Source: a phage. From it: a stretch of DNA of 64,000 bases. Of the stretch, positions 33,800-45,661 are shown piece by piece. Position 1 is the stretch's first letter; the number at the start of each line of letters is the position of its first letter. The notes under the pieces are model-generated. The model ran no database searches. It was not told the DNA's origin and saw only the letters and a program-made list of their open reading frames with translations. The stretch lies in the sequence record PZ809289.1; one strand, written 5' to 3'. Made by a program: the position numbers and the translations under genes.

Positions 33800-33870
33800 G
33801 GCCCTGTAGCTGGACGGTCGAGCGAGCGACTCATAATCGCTGGATGGTGGTTCGATTCCACCCAGGGCCA
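33800..33870 (+). tRNA. tRNA with CAU anticodon (Met/Ile2-type)
   Basis: Hand-folded cloverleaf: acceptor GGCCCTG/CAGGGCC, anticodon stem AGCGA/TCGCT with loop CTCATAA, T-arm GGTGG-TTCGATT-CCACC. Confidence 0.65.
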
Positions 33871-33911
33871 TATTTTGAGAACATAAATACTCTTAGAAAT
33901 AGGAGATATTT

Positions 33912-34577
33912 ATGTTCCATTACACTTATAAAATAACAAACAAAATTAATAATAAAATCTATATAGGTGTCCATTCAACCGAAAATTTGAATGATGCATA
34001 TTTTGGTTCCGGTAAACTCTTGAAAAGGGCCCAGGCCAAATACGGTATAGAAAATTTCTCTAAAGAAATATTAGAGTTCTTTGACGATAAAATCTCTATG
34101 TTTGAGTCAGAAAAGAATATTGTGACTGAAGAGTTTTTAAAGCGCCCCGATGTTTATAATTTGAAATTAGGCGGTGAAGGTGGTTGGGACCATTTAAACA
34201 CCGAAGAATATTTAGATAAAAAGAAAGAAGCTTCCTTAAAAGGAGTTGCTGCTTTTAAAACCAGATTTGAGAACGACCCAGACCTTAAAGAAAAATATCG
34301 TAAAATGGGTTCAGAAAGGTTTAAACAACTTTGGGATAATCCTAAGTATAGAGAGAAATTTTCAAATACTAAATCTTTCTTGGGTAAGACCCATTCAGAT
34401 GAAACCAAAAATAAAATTAAAGAATCTCACGCCAGAAATAAACACCAACAAGGTGAAAATAATTCCGGATATGGAAAAATGTGGATTCATTCTTTAGAAG
34501 AAAAAGTTTCTAAACGTATTAACAAAACGGATATTATTCCTGAAGGTTGGAATAAAGGCCGTAAAATAAAATTTTGA
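33912..34577 (+). CDS. segB: GIY-YIG homing endonuclease, segB-like
   Basis: 221 aa; GIY-YIG motif (KIYIGVHS...YFGSG); between two tRNA genes as T4 segB. Confidence 0.7.
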   Translation: MFHYTYKITNKINNKIYIGVHSTENLNDAYFGSGKLLKRAQAKYGIENFSKEILEFFDDKISMFESEKNIVTEEFLKRPDVYNLKLGGEGGWDHLNTEEYLDKKKEASLKGVAAFKTRFENDPDLKEKYRKMGSERFKQLWDNPKYREKFSNTKSFLGKTHSDETKNKIKESHARNKHQQGENNSGYGKMWIHSLEEKVSKRINKTDIIPEGWNKGRKIKF

Positions 34578-34582
34578 ATTAC

Positions 34583-34657
34583 GTCCCGCTGGTGTAATGG
34601 ATAGCATACGATCCTTCTAAGTTTGCGGTCCTGGTTCGATCCCAGGGCGGGATACCA
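34583..34657 (+). tRNA. tRNA-Arg (anticodon UCU)
   Basis: Acceptor GTCCCGC/GCGGGAT + A + CCA, T-arm CCTGG-TTCGATC-CCAGG, anticodon loop CTTCTAA. Confidence 0.7.
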
Positions 34658-36504: not shown

Positions 36505-36534
36505 GTTTACAAACCTCAGAGGACAGGGTATAAT
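36505..36534 (+). promoter_or_regulatory. Early promoter cassette
   Basis: GTTTAC, 18 bp, TATAAT; IR GAGGACA/TGTCCTC. Confidence 0.5.
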
Positions 36535-37219: not shown

Positions 37220-37756
37220 ATGAGTTTATATGATAACCTTATATCAAATATTGATTGGTTTAAAAATAGTGGTCTTTCCCATGAAACCAATGCAGTTCTT
37301 TATAGAATTCGCCAAGACCTAGGCTATTCAAACGATTTCTTAAGCAGAACATCTAGCCGTGGCGATACTACCAAATTACCTTTTATTTTTGCTTTAGCTG
37401 AAGACCTTTCTTTTGAAGATGCTTTGGAAATTATTGACGTAAATCTGGCTATTCAACGAGTGGAATTCGCTGGACTACGTTATTCAGTATATTCTTTAAA
37501 CGAGAGCGCTGATTGTGTGCTTCTTAATATGGCAGACGATGATTACCATTTAGTATGCTATGTAGCTTTAGAAAATGGTGATGTATTTGGAATGGTTGAC
37601 CGTCGCCCATCTTACTCTGATATTAAAAATTACGATAAAGATGAGCTTATTATTTTGGCTAATGAGTACACATTAGAAAGTCGTAAACAACAACGTAAGC
37701 TTAATCGTTTTATTGCTGAATGTCGCGAATACGCTAAAGAGGTTCAAAATGCATAA
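37220..37756 (+). CDS. Hypothetical protein
   Basis: 178 aa ORF. Confidence 0.5.
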   Translation: MSLYDNLISNIDWFKNSGLSHETNAVLYRIRQDLGYSNDFLSRTSSRGDTTKLPFIFALAEDLSFEDALEIIDVNLAIQRVEFAGLRYSVYSLNESADCVLLNMADDDYHLVCYVALENGDVFGMVDRRPSYSDIKNYDKDELIILANEYTLESRKQQRKLNRFIAECREYAKEVQNA

Positions 37757-38102
37757 GCCTAGTAAAACCGACCCTGGTTACGCATTAGCAGATTACGATA
37801 TCTCTATTTCATTATTCCTCGGCATTGCTACTAGTATGACTGCAGGGATAATTGGATTTCTTGTCGGTGGGATTATTAATGGTATGCCTCGCCATCCGTT
37901 TGAAGATATGAGCCTCGCGTGGATTTGGGTTCCGGCTTTAATAGGATTTTTTATCCCATGGGTCTTTGATATTGCCCAAACTAATAAAATAAACAAGCCA
38001 CGTAAAAAGAGATATGCTTTAGCTATGGCTAATTATAATGAGTATGTAAAACAAACTAAACGTAATGACCTTGAAACCTTTATTAAGGAATGTAAATCAT
38101 GA
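37749..38102 (+). CDS. Membrane protein with C-terminal ...FIKECKS tail
   Basis: ATG 37749; hydrophobic segments; shares C-terminal motif with 41973..42566. Confidence 0.5.
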   Translation: MHKPSKTDPGYALADYDISISLFLGIATSMTAGIIGFLVGGIINGMPRHPFEDMSLAWIWVPALIGFFIPWVFDIAQTNKINKPRKKRYALAMANYNEYVKQTKRNDLETFIKECKS

Positions 38103-38389
38103 ATAAAATTGAAATTGAAATCCCGGAACACAATGACGAGAAATCTGCAGAAAAGGCTATCTATGCTCTTCTGAATAAAGTGAATACCATCGAACATGAA
38201 TGTGAAGCTATTGCCGATAAGTATGGTATCCAATTCGGTACTGGTGATTATGGTTCAGGCCGTACATATTATCCTGTCGGTTATGAATGCTCCCAGTGGT
38301 TTAAAGATGAAATTGAAAACAACGGTGGTGAAGTTGAAAATGGCGTCGTTACAGTTGGTGCTTGGATCTCCTCTTCGGCAATGTGCTAA
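38099..38389 (+). CDS. Small protein, paralogue A of C-terminal-Cys family
   Basis: 96 aa; ends WISSSAMC. Confidence 0.55.
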   Translation: MNKIEIEIPEHNDEKSAEKAIYALLNKVNTIEHECEAIADKYGIQFGTGDYGSGRTYYPVGYECSQWFKDEIENNGGEVENGVVTVGAWISSSAMC

Positions 38390-38398
38390 GGAAATTTT

Positions 38399-38680
38399 AT
38401 GATGAATGATTACCATAAAAATAAAGAGCTGGCTGACGCAGTAAATGATATCCACAAAGCTATTCGTCGTGCTGAGGAAATTGCTGACAAATATGAGACT
38501 CATTTTAATATATACCCTGCTCGCGGTATGGGCGGTGACTATTATTCTCCTGGCGCCTTGAAAGCCGACCTTGCCCACTGGGAAGAATACGGTGAAGCTC
38601 AGTACGCTATTGTAAACCAACATGATTACACTACCAGCCTAGAAAATGGTGGTTGGGTGTCCTCTTCTTCTGAATGTTAA
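38399..38680 (+). CDS. Small protein, paralogue B of C-terminal-Cys family
   Basis: 93 aa; ends WVSSSSEC. Confidence 0.55.
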   Translation: MMNDYHKNKELADAVNDIHKAIRRAEEIADKYETHFNIYPARGMGGDYYSPGALKADLAHWEEYGEAQYAIVNQHDYTTSLENGGWVSSSSEC

Positions 38681-38689
38681 GGAAATAAA

Positions 38690-38902
38690 ATGACTATTGA
38701 TGAAATTGAAAACCAAATCCGTGAATTAGTACGTAAAGGCCAGTCTGTGGCTGACGAAACGGGTGAAGAGTTCCGTGTTTCTGGTCGTGGAGAATACATT
38801 TCTCCAAAGAACCCGGAATATGATGATTACGAATGGGTCCGTGATGACTACGGTATTCCGGAAGGTGAAGGTTTCTGGTTTACATCCTCTATGTCTTGCT
38901 AA
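38690..38902 (+). CDS. Small protein, paralogue C of C-terminal-Cys family
   Basis: 70 aa; ends WFTSSMSC. Confidence 0.55.
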   Translation: MTIDEIENQIRELVRKGQSVADETGEEFRVSGRGEYISPKNPEYDDYEWVRDDYGIPEGEGFWFTSSMSC

Positions 38903-38913
38903 GGTGATAAAAA

Positions 38914-39138
38914 ATGTCTGATATTAATGAATTAGAAAAAGCTGCACTTGAACTGGCTGCACTGTATAAGAAAGTAAAAGATATGGCTTCTGCTCAAAGT
39001 TTTGGTGTTGAGCTCGACGATTATGACGGTGAAGTTCGTCTCGAAGATTGGCTGAATAGCTCGTGTTATGGCGAAGAAGCTGGTCGCACCTTCGTTGCTC
39101 GGGCCGATGGTAAAATCTGGTATCCGAGCTCATGCTAA
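38914..39138 (+). CDS. Small protein, paralogue D of C-terminal-Cys family
   Basis: 74 aa; ends WYPSSC. Confidence 0.55.
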   Translation: MSDINELEKAALELAALYKKVKDMASAQSFGVELDDYDGEVRLEDWLNSSCYGEEAGRTFVARADGKIWYPSSC

Positions 39139-39359
39139 AATTAAAGAAAAGATACATTCGTAAAATAAATGGTCTTCGCGATTATGCCAAAGGTTGGCCG
39201 TTAAGTATTATTATGGCTGATAGACACCCGCGTTATAATACTGAGATGACTTATTACAAAAAGTACGATTCATATTGTCGGTCTAAAGCAGGTCGTTTAG
39301 ATGGTTCTTATGAAGACTATTTCGGTAAAAAACCTACTCGTATTTCGTTAGGAAAATAA
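39132..39359 (+). CDS. Small basic hypothetical protein
   Basis: 75 aa ORF. Confidence 0.4.
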   Translation: MLKLKKRYIRKINGLRDYAKGWPLSIIMADRHPRYNTEMTYYKKYDSYCRSKAGRLDGSYEDYFGKKPTRISLGK

Positions 39360-39368
39360 TTTAACCAC

Positions 39369-39719
39369 ATGGATGTGGTAGGAGGACTTATGCATAAAGA
39401 TTCAGTATTCAAATATCTTTTGAAAACAAATAAAGAATTCTATATGAATGGACAGGCCTTCTTGTTCGTTCGTGGTAAACGTGAGATGTTTTACAAATGC
39501 GACCTCTCAATGCACCATCATATGTATCACACCCGCGGTGAGCCTATACTGGGGTTCTCTGGTGACGAGACTAGACACATAGCTATGTACTACGACCATT
39601 TTAAGCTCAATGATTGTGGTGACAACGCTTTGGTCTGGAACCCGTCTTGGCGTCGTTGGGATACAGTAGACAATGATAAATTATTTTTAGAATATTGCAG
39701 AAGTGATGTACAACTCTAG
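39369..39719 (+). CDS. Hypothetical protein
   Basis: 116 aa ORF. Confidence 0.45.
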   Translation: MDVVGGLMHKDSVFKYLLKTNKEFYMNGQAFLFVRGKREMFYKCDLSMHHHMYHTRGEPILGFSGDETRHIAMYYDHFKLNDCGDNALVWNPSWRRWDTVDNDKLFLEYCRSDVQL

Positions 39720-39762: not shown

Positions 39763-40002
39763 ATGTGGTATTACGCTCCGATGTCCGATAAGTCTAATGA
39801 ACCGGTACGCATTACTCGCGCCAAGTTTAAAAAGATTTATGGCTTCTCTTATAAGAAGTCTGATTACGGTGTTCGTTTTGAAGATGCCCACTGTATCAAT
39901 GACCCTTATGCTGAAGAAATCTCTAATGAGATAATTCCTATCATTAAGAATAATTCTGATGATATGTGGGAATTGCATAACGATTACGTCGCTGAAATTT
40001 AA
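39763..40002 (+). CDS. Hypothetical protein
   Basis: 79 aa ORF with SD. Confidence 0.45.
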   Translation: MWYYAPMSDKSNEPVRITRAKFKKIYGFSYKKSDYGVRFEDAHCINDPYAEEISNEIIPIIKNNSDDMWELHNDYVAEI

Positions 40003-41286: not shown

Positions 41287-41973
41287 ATGAACGGTCCGAA
41301 AACTTTTAATTCTAAAGCTCGTGCAGTAGGTGGTTTTGCAGGTCATATTTCTAATGATGATATTAAAAACGAGCCTATGTTCTTTAACTGTGATTTGAAT
41401 TTTGCTGCACAAAATGGTGGTCCTATTACTCGTAGCTTTATTACTAATCTCCCTGATGAGTGGAAAGCCGTTGAATGCGTATTTGATTCCCGTGTACACA
41501 TGTTAATGCCCGGCTGGTACCCTGCAATTCCAGGCTTCCACCATGATGATGTACCCCGTCCGGATATTCCGGTTGGTCAACACTTTATTACCGCAGGGCA
41601 ACCTGATTATGATAATCCTCGATACCATTCTGAACATATTCTTGGTCTTGTTAACGCTGATGTGTGTCCTACTCATTTTGCAACCGGAACTGCCCAGTTC
41701 AGTCAGATTCCTGAAGGCGAACTTATCTATCGCCAGTGGCATAAAGAAGTTCTGGAAAAAATTGAGTCTAATGAATTAACTAAGTGGGATGCTCCTGACC
41801 GCACGTTGCTCCAGTTTGATTGGCAGACATGGCATACAGGTTCTCGTGCAGTAAGTAACGGTTGGCGCTGGTTTGGTCGTGTGTCTCGTAATACAGACCG
41901 TGTTAAAAAGATTACAAATGAAATCCGCGTTAATGCTCAAGTATATCTGGAATTTCCTATGGAGGGCTGGTAA
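41287..41973 (+). CDS. Hypothetical protein
   Basis: 228 aa ORF. Confidence 0.5.
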   Translation: MNGPKTFNSKARAVGGFAGHISNDDIKNEPMFFNCDLNFAAQNGGPITRSFITNLPDEWKAVECVFDSRVHMLMPGWYPAIPGFHHDDVPRPDIPVGQHFITAGQPDYDNPRYHSEHILGLVNADVCPTHFATGTAQFSQIPEGELIYRQWHKEVLEKIESNELTKWDAPDRTLLQFDWQTWHTGSRAVSNGWRWFGRVSRNTDRVKKITNEIRVNAQVYLEFPMEGW

Positions 41974-42566
41974 TGGCCCTTTATGAACCTGGATGTATGG
42001 GTATTGATACAAACTTCATCCGTCGGTCGGAAAATGCCGGAATTATTATCCCAAGTGGTGAACATATGATTATTAAAAAGTCCTGGCGAAATATCGATGA
42101 CGGTGATGAAGGAATTTCAGCCAGTACAATAGATTGGTCAGGTTGTACTGCCGAAATGAAACAGCTTTTAATTGAGGAGTTCAGAATGGGTTATATCGTA
42201 AATGGTTGGCAACCGGTAAAGAAAATCACCCGCACTGACGATAAGTATATTTGTCTCCAAGATGGAAAGGCTAAGCTCATTGATACTGAATGGCTTACGT
42301 TCGGACGATATGTTGTAGCGTATTTTATTACTTTACTTCCAATGATAGTGTTGAGTTCATTTTTAATCGACGCCAATTGGAATGATGCGCTAGAACGAAC
42401 TATTATTGGTGCGGGATTAATGAACCTTTTCACCGCTGGAGCTGCTTTAAGTATTTGGTGCTTGGCTATTGAAATGCCATGGCGTTTACGTCGTCAACAA
42501 CGTCTTTACGACGAAGGTAAAAACAAACATAATTTAAATGAGTTTATTAAGGAATGCCGTAAATGA
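41973..42566 (+). CDS. Membrane protein with C-terminal ...FIKECRK tail
   Basis: 197 aa; C-terminal TM segments and same tail motif as 37749..38102. Confidence 0.5.
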   Translation: MALYEPGCMGIDTNFIRRSENAGIIIPSGEHMIIKKSWRNIDDGDEGISASTIDWSGCTAEMKQLLIEEFRMGYIVNGWQPVKKITRTDDKYICLQDGKAKLIDTEWLTFGRYVVAYFITLLPMIVLSSFLIDANWNDALERTIIGAGLMNLFTAGAALSIWCLAIEMPWRLRRQQRLYDEGKNKHNLNEFIKECRK

Positions 42567-43271: not shown

Positions 43272-43766
43272 ATGGATATTTTTGATATGTTACGCCTTGA
43301 TGAAGGCTGTAAATTAGACTTATATAAGGATACTGAGGGATACTATACTATTGGTATTGGCCAATTGATTACTAAGAATCCTTCTAAAGATGTTGCTCGG
43401 GCTGAACTTGATAAGCTTATGGGCCGGGTTTGTAACGGACGTATTACTATGGCTGAAGCCGAACAACTTTTTAACAGGTCGGTTGAAAATGCTCGTAGAG
43501 CTATTCTGCGTAATCCTAAATTGAAACCTGTTTATGATGTACTGGACGAAGTTCGTCGTTGTGCTTTAATTAACATGGTATTCCAAATGGGTGAAGCAGG
43601 TGTAGCTGGGTTCACTAACTCTTTACGTATGCTCCAACAGAAACGTTGGAATGATGCGGCAGTTAACCTGGCTCAATCCCGTTGGTATAAACAAACCCCT
43701 AATCGTGCTAAGCGCGTGATTTCTACATTTAAAACAGGTACTTGGAAAGCATATGAAAACTTATAA
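43272..43766 (+). CDS. e: Endolysin (T4 lysozyme E)
   Basis: 164 aa; [32 protein letters not shown]...[22 protein letters not shown] matches T4 lysozyme. Confidence 0.95.
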
Positions 43767-44151
43767 TGAATTTATCGCAGAGAATGTAATTCCTGCATCT
43801 AAAGAACTTTTGGCAATGTTCGAATCTGAAGAGTTCACTGAAGAACTGAATGAGAATCTGACCCAGGCCACTCCTCAGGTTATTCGCGTTCGTAATGCCC
43901 TTCAGACAGGCATGCAGGCTCGCGTCTCTAAGACTATGAAGCTGGCCTTCACCACTTCTAAAAATGAAGACTACGGTGATGGTATTGCAATGAACACTGG
44001 ACAGTATTATGTTGAGTGGAATGGCGAAACCGGTACTGCTAAGATTCGCCAAACCAGAGCAGCGGGTGGTAAAATGTTGGACATTAAACTGAACGTTAAA
44101 GAGAAAGACGTCGCGGCTTTGTTCAAGAATTGGATGAAGACCTATAAATAA
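43753..44151 (+). CDS. Internal-protein-like, leader [10 protein letters not shown]
   Basis: CTS-like N-terminus; adjacent to e where T4 carries ipIII/ipII. Confidence 0.6.
44143..44150 (+). promoter_or_regulatory. Late promoter TATAAATA upstream of ipIII-like gene
   Basis: tataaata adjacent to early promoter. Confidence 0.45.
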
Positions 44152-44233: not shown

Positions 44234-44830
44234 ATGAAAACGTATAAAGAATTTATCGCCGAAGCTTCTGTAGGAAAGGTCCAAGGCATTAATAAAGATG
44301 AGTGGACTTACAAAGGAAACGGCGTTGACAACCCAGGAAACGGTTTTGACGCTAAAACAGCTCCTATTGAACGGTACTTGGCTACAAAAGCTTCCGACTT
44401 TAAAGCTTTCGCCTGGGAAGGACTTCGCTGGCGTAACGACCTAAATATTGAAGCTGATGGACTTAAATTTGCCCATATCCAAGATGTTGTTGCTAGTAAC
44501 TTGGACGCAGCTTTTGTTAAAGCTGACGGTGACCTTCGTCGCTGGAATTTAAAACTGTTCTCTAAACAGAAAGGTCCTGTATTTGTACCTAAAGCAGGTA
44601 AATGGACTATTGATAATAAATTGGCTAAAGCAGTTAACTTCGCTGGTCTTGAATTTGCCAAGCATAAATCCGCATGGAAAGGTCTTGATGCAATGACTTT
44701 CCGTAAAGAATTTGCCGATGTTATGGCTAAAGGCGGCTTTAAGGCAGAAATAGATACCTCTAAAGGTACGTTTAAAGACGCTAATATTCAGTACGCTTAC
44801 GCCGTTGCTAATGCAGCCCGTGGTAATTAA
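44234..44830 (+). CDS. Internal-protein-like, leader MKTYKEFIAE (ipIII-sized)
   Basis: 198 aa, CTS-like N-terminus, basic; late and early promoter motifs upstream. Confidence 0.6.
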   Translation: MKTYKEFIAEASVGKVQGINKDEWTYKGNGVDNPGNGFDAKTAPIERYLATKASDFKAFAWEGLRWRNDLNIEADGLKFAHIQDVVASNLDAAFVKADGDLRRWNLKLFSKQKGPVFVPKAGKWTIDNKLAKAVNFAGLEFAKHKSAWKGLDAMTFRKEFADVMAKGGFKAEIDTSKGTFKDANIQYAYAVANAARGN

Positions 44831-45361: not shown

Positions 45362-45661
45362 ATGAAAACTTATCAAGAATTTATCACAGAAGCCAAAGCT
45401 CCTAAAGCATTTCAAATTGGAGTTCAAGGCAATTTAGACCAAGAATATGTTGATGCTATTGTAGCAAGCCTCGGTAAACAGGGCGTACAAGTCGATTTTG
45501 TTGATTTTACCAAAGGTAATACTTTTAATATTGTTACATCTAAAGGTTCTTTAGCTAAAGTTAAAAAGGCCTTTGGCGTAGCACAAGCATATGAAATCGA
45601 CCACTCCGAATTAGAAAATAAAGGTCGCCAGAACACAATTAGAGGTTCTGGTTCTTTCTAA
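45362..45661 (+). CDS. Internal-protein-like, leader MKTYQEFITE
   Basis: CTS-like N-terminus. Confidence 0.55.
   Translation: MKTYQEFITEAKAPKAFQIGVQGNLDQEYVDAIVASLGKQGVQVDFVDFTKGNTFNIVTSKGSLAKVKKAFGVAQAYEIDHSELENKGRQNTIRGSGSF

Follow-up and report, generated by a model that had tools for sequence, protein, structure and literature searches.

The window analysed here, a 64,000-nucleotide stretch of DNA (sequence record PZ809289.1), comes from a Dhakavirus, a T4-like phage, and carries a tandem array of four small genes whose products all end in cysteine (Table 1). The array region is 99.5% identical to that of the Dhakavirus phages vB_EcoM-E33 and WG01, and the genes across this region are annotated as 'hypothetical' throughout in the Dhakavirus relatives. 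The four co-directional open reading frames (ORFs) at 38099-39138 have exactly the lengths given in the original prediction, which had been made from the sequence alone. The endings that it had listed, an aromatic residue followed by SS(x)C, were confirmed as well; copies 1 to 4 end with ...GAWISSSAMC, ...GGWVSSSSEC, ...GFWFTSSMSC and IWYPSSC, respectively. Only four of the 120 plus-strand ORFs of at least 60 amino acids (aa) in the window end in Cys, and all four are the array copies. The array lies directly after the gene of a membrane protein, an e.3 homologue, and between the tRNA genes and nudE/e, as had also been described.

Table 1. Features of the array region in the window (AF2, AlphaFold2; pLDDT, predicted local distance difference test; dN/dS, ratio of nonsynonymous to synonymous substitution rates)
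Feature	Position	Strand	Evidence
T4 e.3-like membrane protein	37749..38102	+	PHROG 2330; VR7 annotation 'e.3'
Copy 1, type A, 96 aa	38099..38389	+	PHROG 899 E 2.8e-23; AF2 pLDDT 91; dN/dS 0.15-0.21
Junction 1>2, TGC-TAA-GGAAATTTT-ATG	38384..38401	+	sequence; stop overlaps ribosome-binding site
Copy 2, type B, 93 aa	38399..38680	+	PHROG 899 E 1.5e-20; dN/dS 0.15-0.16
Copy 3, type C, 70 aa	38690..38902	+	PHROG 899 E 6.2e-14; dN/dS 0.17
Copy 4, type D, 74 aa	38914..39138	+	PHROG 899 E 1.8e-9; dN/dS 0.08-0.09
Lineage-specific small genes between array and enzyme gene	39132-39359, 39369-39719, 39763-40002	+	ORFs; PHROGs 7065, 9796
DUF7277 + DUF7275 protein, 319 aa	40022..40981	+	Pfam PF23942 E 2e-27, PF23940 E 2e-77

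All four products matched PHROG 899, a phage family without an assigned function that includes RB69ORF139c, JS98 ORF126c-129c and PHG31ORF064c, and the models of its members in BFVD have a common fold. The four genes are thus true paralogues with a common architecture, as had been proposed. No match to the small proteins was found in Pfam, NCBIfam, PADLOC or the PDB sequences, and we found no literature on PHROG 899, RB69ORF139c or related names, including the terminal-Cys motif, the subtypes and the enzyme linkage described below. In an exhaustive HMMER search (E<=1e-3), the family amounted to 301 clusters at 50% identity. Its members are almost all 64-138 aa long, and the match extends to the last residue; a 2212-aa match (P0156) was rejected as a spurious repeat match. 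Copy 4 stands furthest from the others. A family hidden Markov model (HMM) built without its subtype gave it 2.3 bits, equal to shuffled controls, so that it went undetected; a profile-profile comparison (hhalign) of the subtype with the rest of the family gave a probability of 96.2% and an E value of 2.3e-9, and the sequence P0089 was found to be intermediate between the two.

The most conserved part of the family is its C-terminal end. Cys was the last residue in 171 of 181 short family sequences, and a few sequences have one extra residue; this count cannot be an artefact of the search because a local HMM is unable to impose a terminal Cys. The invariance suggested by four endings therefore holds on a scale beyond what could be seen in the window. 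The consensus tail reads G-x-W-x-[S/A/P]-S-S-x-x-C, with the Trp, both Ser and the Cys all but invariant; the tail as defined in this analysis, G-x-W-x-[SAP]-S-S-x(0-2)-C, is present in all four copies. Trp and Cys are spaced W-6-C in 167 of 177 members; six others, among them the copy-4 subtype, have W-4-C. Few protein families keep one residue nearly unchanged at the extreme C-terminus, and where this happens the end is usually a site of chemistry or docking. The original prediction had suggested metal binding as one role of the Cys; an intramolecular site is unlikely as a feature of the family in view of the 100 of 177 members in which the terminal Cys is the only one and the 42 of 177 that have no His. 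A W-x-S-S-x-C motif was also observed at internal positions in three relatives (NWKSSAGSCGW in L027 970-1386, LWESSGSCEW in L024 4652-5053 and DWMHSTISCSGYD in L025 1220-1540), which indicates that the motif does not strictly depend on a free C-terminus.

The tail is preceded by a helix ending in ...A-E-x-I-A-D-E-x-G-x-x-F and by the motif (A)YGMGG-x-YYP. This motif corresponds to the central Gly/Tyr-rich stretch that had been ascribed to all four proteins; it was found in copies 1-3 (GDYGSGRTYYP in copy 1 and ARGMGGDYYSP in copy 2) and was absent from copy 4, which carries an internal DWLNSSCYGEE motif in addition to its terminal one. The acidic helical N-terminus, in turn, was borne out. The four copies have isoelectric points (pI) of 4.2-4.9 and net charges of -7.5 to -10.5 (the family median pI is 4.5), and the AF2 model of copy 1 (predicted template modelling score 0.78) shows a 29-residue helix at residues 14-42 and a small sheet accompanied by one short helix; the tail is modelled less confidently. 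The small proteins are strongly acidic, folded and cytoplasmic; in a new fold, they combine the long N-terminal helix with a small beta unit and leave the C-terminal tail exposed.

The nucleotides at the junctions between the genes are repeated, as had been noticed. Each unit consists of the Ser-Ser...Cys codons and a TAA stop overlapping a TAAGGA ribosome-binding site, followed by a spacer, with the next ATG 9-11 nt further on; the design seen between copies 1 and 2 recurs at 38675-38692 and 38897-38916 and is the same in UGJNEcP3, VR7 and Mosigvirus moha. At the end of the array, the Cys codon of copy 4 overlaps the ATG of the following gene. No DNA repeat longer than the junction was found within the array, which rules out a recent duplication as its origin.

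The family had been described as diversifying, and this description was not supported. Orthologue dN/dS values of 0.08-0.21 were obtained on the plus strand, and the copy types are conserved across phage groups; the subtype of copy 4, with its internal W-x-S-S-C-Y-G-E, is kept in Aeromonas phage CC2, Phapecoctavirus Schickermooser, Shewanella phage Thanatos-1 and one marine contig. Because the subtypes are conserved across phages in this way, the copies are old, subfunctionalised paralogues that are individually maintained under purifying selection and do not diversify fast. The array copies are genuine genes under constraint, and the ORFs antisense to them are noise. One such ORF of 122 aa (38255-38623, minus strand), which runs across copies 1 and 2, is probably spurious, as it is supported by no family and the substitutions fit the plus-strand genes better. 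The expected variation in array size was found between close relatives, where the content differs by whole cassettes: there are types A to D in the window, five copies in UGJNEcP3 and VR7, where a further member of 65 aa (...WVSSSYEC) stands between B and C, and three copies in Mosigvirus moha.

What the original prediction did not see is that the array is near-obligately linked to the gene of a MenT-like nucleotidyltransferase, the DUF7277/DUF7275 protein, located about 0.9 kb downstream in the window. In most other phages this gene begins 8-17 nt after the array. Starting from the small proteins, such a position was found in five of five independent metagenome contigs (L006, L007, L025, L027 and L028); four tandem members precede a gene beginning MIAIIGSRAL... 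in the high-GC contig L006, three precede the DUF7277/DUF7275 gene in the 142-kb phage contig L007, and five precede it in L028. Starting from the enzyme, array members lay upstream in all three divergent metagenome contigs and in all five contigs from metagenome-assembled genomes (MAGs). Among ten phage records selected to be as divergent as possible, six also had members close by (Phapecoctavirus, Otagovirus, Zedzedvirus, Menderavirus, Shewanella and Aeromonas phages), on the upstream side in five cases and on the downstream side in IME-SM1. In total, family members were found near the enzyme gene in 19 of 23 other loci, upstream and on the same strand except in IME-SM1. A third conserved gene was considered and rejected; conservation between phages does not extend to the genes that follow the enzyme downstream, and the module therefore has two parts only. 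Both families are absent from T4. These data point to a conserved two-part phage module made up of the small proteins and the DUF7277/DUF7275 protein.

The neighbourhood of the enzyme gene was examined as well (loci L015, L016, L017, L018 and L019 together with the window). The enzyme gene repeatedly lies beside tRNA genes in Thanatos-1, Gordonia phage Toniann and the window (33800-34657) and beside RNA ligase genes in DSS3_VP1, Blueeyedbeauty and CC2, which hints at a function on tRNA or RNA ends. As separate observations, two Phapecoctavirus-like loci and Vibrio phage nt-1 have SIR2-family genes roughly 3 kb downstream of the enzyme gene, and nicotinamide phosphoribosyltransferase genes occur near it in two other phages (L010 7200-8015, L023 7861-8673, L014 7159-7920, L013 1-785 and L018 8185-8813). 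This proximity may be coincidence or may reflect a link to NAD metabolism.

The enzyme itself was found in at least 734 phage records and in more than 2000 protein clusters. Among bacterial and archaeal genomes of 185,579 species it occurred only in five phage-like MAG contigs; the enzyme is thus practically restricted to lytic phages. An alignment of 41 homologues revealed the invariant G-S, D-x-D and third acidic residue (E) that form the signature of DNA polymerase beta (pol-beta) nucleotidyltransferases, together with many invariant residues in the helical C-domain. The AF2 model was confident (pLDDT 91.9) and has a MenT-type nucleotidyltransferase fold; the structures listed for it were the MenT1 toxin (score 10.3), ANT(2'') (8.8), TglT/MenT3 (8.6), MenT4 (7.9), a JHP933-like nucleotidyltransferase (7.8) and LnuA (7.4). 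In Pfam (E<=0.01) the protein matched only PF23940 and PF23942 and not DUF1814, and a profile search of the PDB sequences returned no MenT and no other match. Of motifs I-IV, which make up the DUF1814/AbiEii sequence signature, the protein has motif I (GS...DxD), but III and IV could not be aligned. The DUF7277/DUF7275 protein is predicted to be an active nucleotidyltransferase with a MenT/AbiEii-like fold. No literature on DUF7275 or DUF7277 was found; neither the enzyme nor the small-protein family has an assigned function, despite their wide spread.

The closest known architecture is that of a small partner with a MenT-type nucleotidyltransferase; the phage enzyme does not belong to it at the sequence level, and a partner of this kind is new. 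MenT toxins add nucleotides to tRNA 3′ ends (PMC7450476). The MenT1 gene lies downstream of a gene for a 68-aa helical antitoxin that blocks the active site of MenT1 (PMC10435456); this antitoxin induces auto-phosphorylation of the active-site Thr, and phosphate transfer to an active-site Ser or Thr is possible for MenT-family enzymes (PMC11375011). The phage locus resembles MenA1-MenT1 in that a short gene, encoding a small helical partner, immediately precedes the enzyme gene (PMC7450476, PMC10435456). The partner gene is upstream on the same strand here too, with three small genes in between in the window, and the phage enzyme is often encoded near tRNA genes, the 3′ ends of tRNA being the MenT substrate. 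It differs from MenAT and AbiE (DUF1814) in that the enzyme is not a member at the sequence level and is essentially confined to lytic phages, and in that the partner consists of one to five folded acidic paralogues ending in W-x-S-S-S-x-x-C, which are unrelated to MenA1, MenA3 and AbiEi. In GlnD-PII and in the MNT-HEPN type VII toxin-antitoxin system, an enzyme of the pol-beta fold nucleotidylylates a small partner on a hydroxyl side chain, the acceptor residue being Tyr. By analogy, the same logic might apply to the invariant Ser-Ser of the tail; the phage small proteins have no homology to PII or HEPN.

The best reading of these data, in our view, is that the small proteins are partners of the enzyme, which would either modify them on their common tail as clients or be inhibited by them. 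Within this reading we favour, at a probability of roughly 0.45, a model in which several proteins with different targets are recognised, and probably modified, by one enzyme at the tail that they have in common. The preference is based on the presence of one enzyme gene per locus against up to five anciently diverged, conserved paralogues that share only the tail; several such paralogues per enzyme fit several clients better than one inhibitor. The near-invariant tail would be the handle recognised by the single enzyme, which would most plausibly transfer a nucleotide or phosphate onto one of the two invariant Ser hydroxyls, with the thiol or carboxylate of the terminal Cys helping in docking. 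Since the paralogues (types A-E) have divergent bodies, each copy would then act on a downstream target of its own. The module would be expressed early. Because it is often encoded beside tRNA and RNA-ligase genes, it would probably act in the conflict over tRNA and translation. If a role as clients or regulators is correct, it would provide a function for a widespread block of T4-like 'dark matter' and possibly a new phage route to manipulate tRNA, translation or defence.

The alternative closest to this model is that the small proteins are antitoxin-like inhibitors or regulators, which would bind the enzyme and block or time its activity; the enzyme itself would be a MenT-like toxin or serve host shutoff, with tRNA 3′ ends as its target. 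The tail of the small proteins would then plug the active site, perhaps by mimicking the CCA end of tRNA or by inducing auto-phosphorylation as MenA1 does in MenT1. Such a role would agree with the order of the genes, in which the small partner precedes the nucleotidyltransferase as in MenA1-MenT1 (PMC7450476, PMC10435456), with the tight, translationally coupled linkage, and with the acidity and the long N-terminal helix that are also features of MenA1. A single inhibitor would be enough, however, and what is found are arrays of two to five anciently diverged, individually conserved paralogues. MenA1 is moreover mostly helix with a dispensable disordered tail, whereas the tail is the most conserved part here; the small proteins have no sequence or fold similarity to any antitoxin, and the enzyme is not a DUF1814 member at the sequence level. 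We therefore regard inhibition as doubtful, if still the strongest competitor of the client model.

It is less probable again that the small proteins are independent host-directed effectors, the idea of host interaction or counter-defence put forward in the original prediction. Each would act by itself on a host target or defence system, for example as an inhibitor of host abortive-infection toxins of the nucleotidyltransferase type, and would share no more than a mobile accessory cassette with the enzyme gene. Linkage to the enzyme extends across unrelated phage families with otherwise different neighbours, which goes beyond shared synteny; none of the five loci reached from the small proteins had an array without the enzyme, selection is purifying and not diversifying, and no match was found in PADLOC or in anti-defence-related families. 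In favour of such effectors are the location of the array in a hyperplastic early region, its cassette-wise gain and loss between close relatives, the three unrelated genes that intervene in the window, and the fact that small acidic proteins are a common anti-defence format. Very improbable, finally, is a role as precursors of ribosomally synthesised and post-translationally modified peptides (RiPPs), in which the Ser...Cys-COOH end would be processed by aminovinylcysteine (AviCys) or lanthionine chemistry or by release of a Cys-derived small molecule, or as oligomeric metal or thiol carriers using the terminal Cys. AviCys-forming peptides have an S-x-x-C end, which the C-terminus of the small proteins resembles in its genetically fixed Cys with Ser at -3/-4, and several precursor paralogues beside one enzyme follow a RiPP-like logic. 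No gene for an HFCD/LanD decarboxylase, dehydratase, cyclase or radical-SAM enzyme was found in the neighbourhoods examined, however; the proteins are confidently folded domains, as seen in copy 1, and not leader-core peptides, and the Ser-Cys spacing varies (WYPSSC, WQSSSC). The chains likewise lack the two or more conserved Cys/His ligands of a Cys-based metal-binding protein. Mimicry of phosphopantothenoylcysteine was also considered and dropped in view of the absence of matching enzymes nearby, the variable spacing and the folded domain.

Several findings weigh against the client model and the module on which it is built. Three unrelated small genes part the array from the enzyme gene in the window. 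No such array was found beside four distant DUF7275 homologues (Vibrio nt-1, Gordonia, Streptomyces and DSS3_VP1), which are the most distant ones, with 25-33% identity or the DUF7275 domain only. The resemblance of the enzyme to MenT is at the level of fold, with no match to DUF1814 or to PDB sequences. The Trp-to-Cys spacing of type D is shorter than in the other types (W-4-C), so that a fixed Ser-Cys geometry is not essential, and some members have no terminal Cys, namely those of Acinetobacter phage Henu6 (L012 2372-2560, ...EWSASSENS) and of a marine contig (L020 4202-4384, ...EWTSSSQN); these may be natural Cys-less variants or reflect sequencing or stop-codon differences.

Taken to its full extent, the client model would describe a previously unrecognised system, in which a MenT-like enzyme covalently tags (nucleotidylylates or phosphorylates) Ser-Ser-x-x-Cys tails and thereby switches on effectors with different targets, probably in a conflict over tRNA and translation. 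We put this complete version forward as speculative and, with all its parts together, rather unlikely; if true, it would represent a phage post-translational activation module of one enzyme and many substrates that extends over Straboviridae, Phapecoctavirus and Otagovirus as well as further large lytic phages.

Another small family was observed next to the DUF7275 gene in the array-less loci (L014 3708-4004, L015 4600-5360, L016 4630-5328 and L018 5217-5612), with the pattern ...GGEGQG...F.K.GYY.SY.G...VEV.P.EKT.... The enzyme may have an alternative partner in this family.

The array occupies the same slot as the T4 accessory genes e.2-e.8, between the tRNA cluster (tRNA genes at 33800 and 34583 in the window) and nudE and e (about 42.7-43.8 kb), and homologues of both e.3 and e.2 are present in the window. 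T4 differs in that both the small family and the enzyme are missing from its whole genome. When all 1012 ORFs of the T4 genome (NC_000866) were searched with the small-protein family HMM, the best match was tk.1 (E 0.018, not Cys-terminal) and none was significant; nothing significant was obtained with the DUF7277/DUF7275 enzyme HMM. The original prediction, which could match the four to no T4 protein, was thus borne out on this point, and the possibility it had raised that these are ordinary conserved T4 e.x-region genes did not hold. In T4, e.2 follows directly after e.3 and is unrelated to the small-protein family, and the e.2-like gene of the window lies further downstream (41973-42566). 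The stop of the e.3-like gene overlaps the start of copy 1 (ATGA). This gene adjoins the array in Tevenvirinae only and is absent beside the arrays of other phage groups; it is flanking context outside the conserved module.

A scan for promoters and terminators gave no more sites than shuffled sequence, with a single good promoter-like site at 36506. The 197-aa ORF at 41973-42566 is like T4 e.2 in its N-terminal part (WRNIDDGDEGISASTIDWSGC...EEFRMGY) and terminates in NLNEFIKECRK, similar to the DLETFIKECKS with which the e.3-like protein ends; it may be an e.2/e.3-type chimera or share a common C-terminal module. Just past e, three genes (43753-44151, 44234-44830 and 45362-45661) begin with MKTY(N/K/Q)EFI(A/T)E, which we take to be the capsid-targeting sequence of T4 internal proteins, and their products are presumably internal-protein-like.

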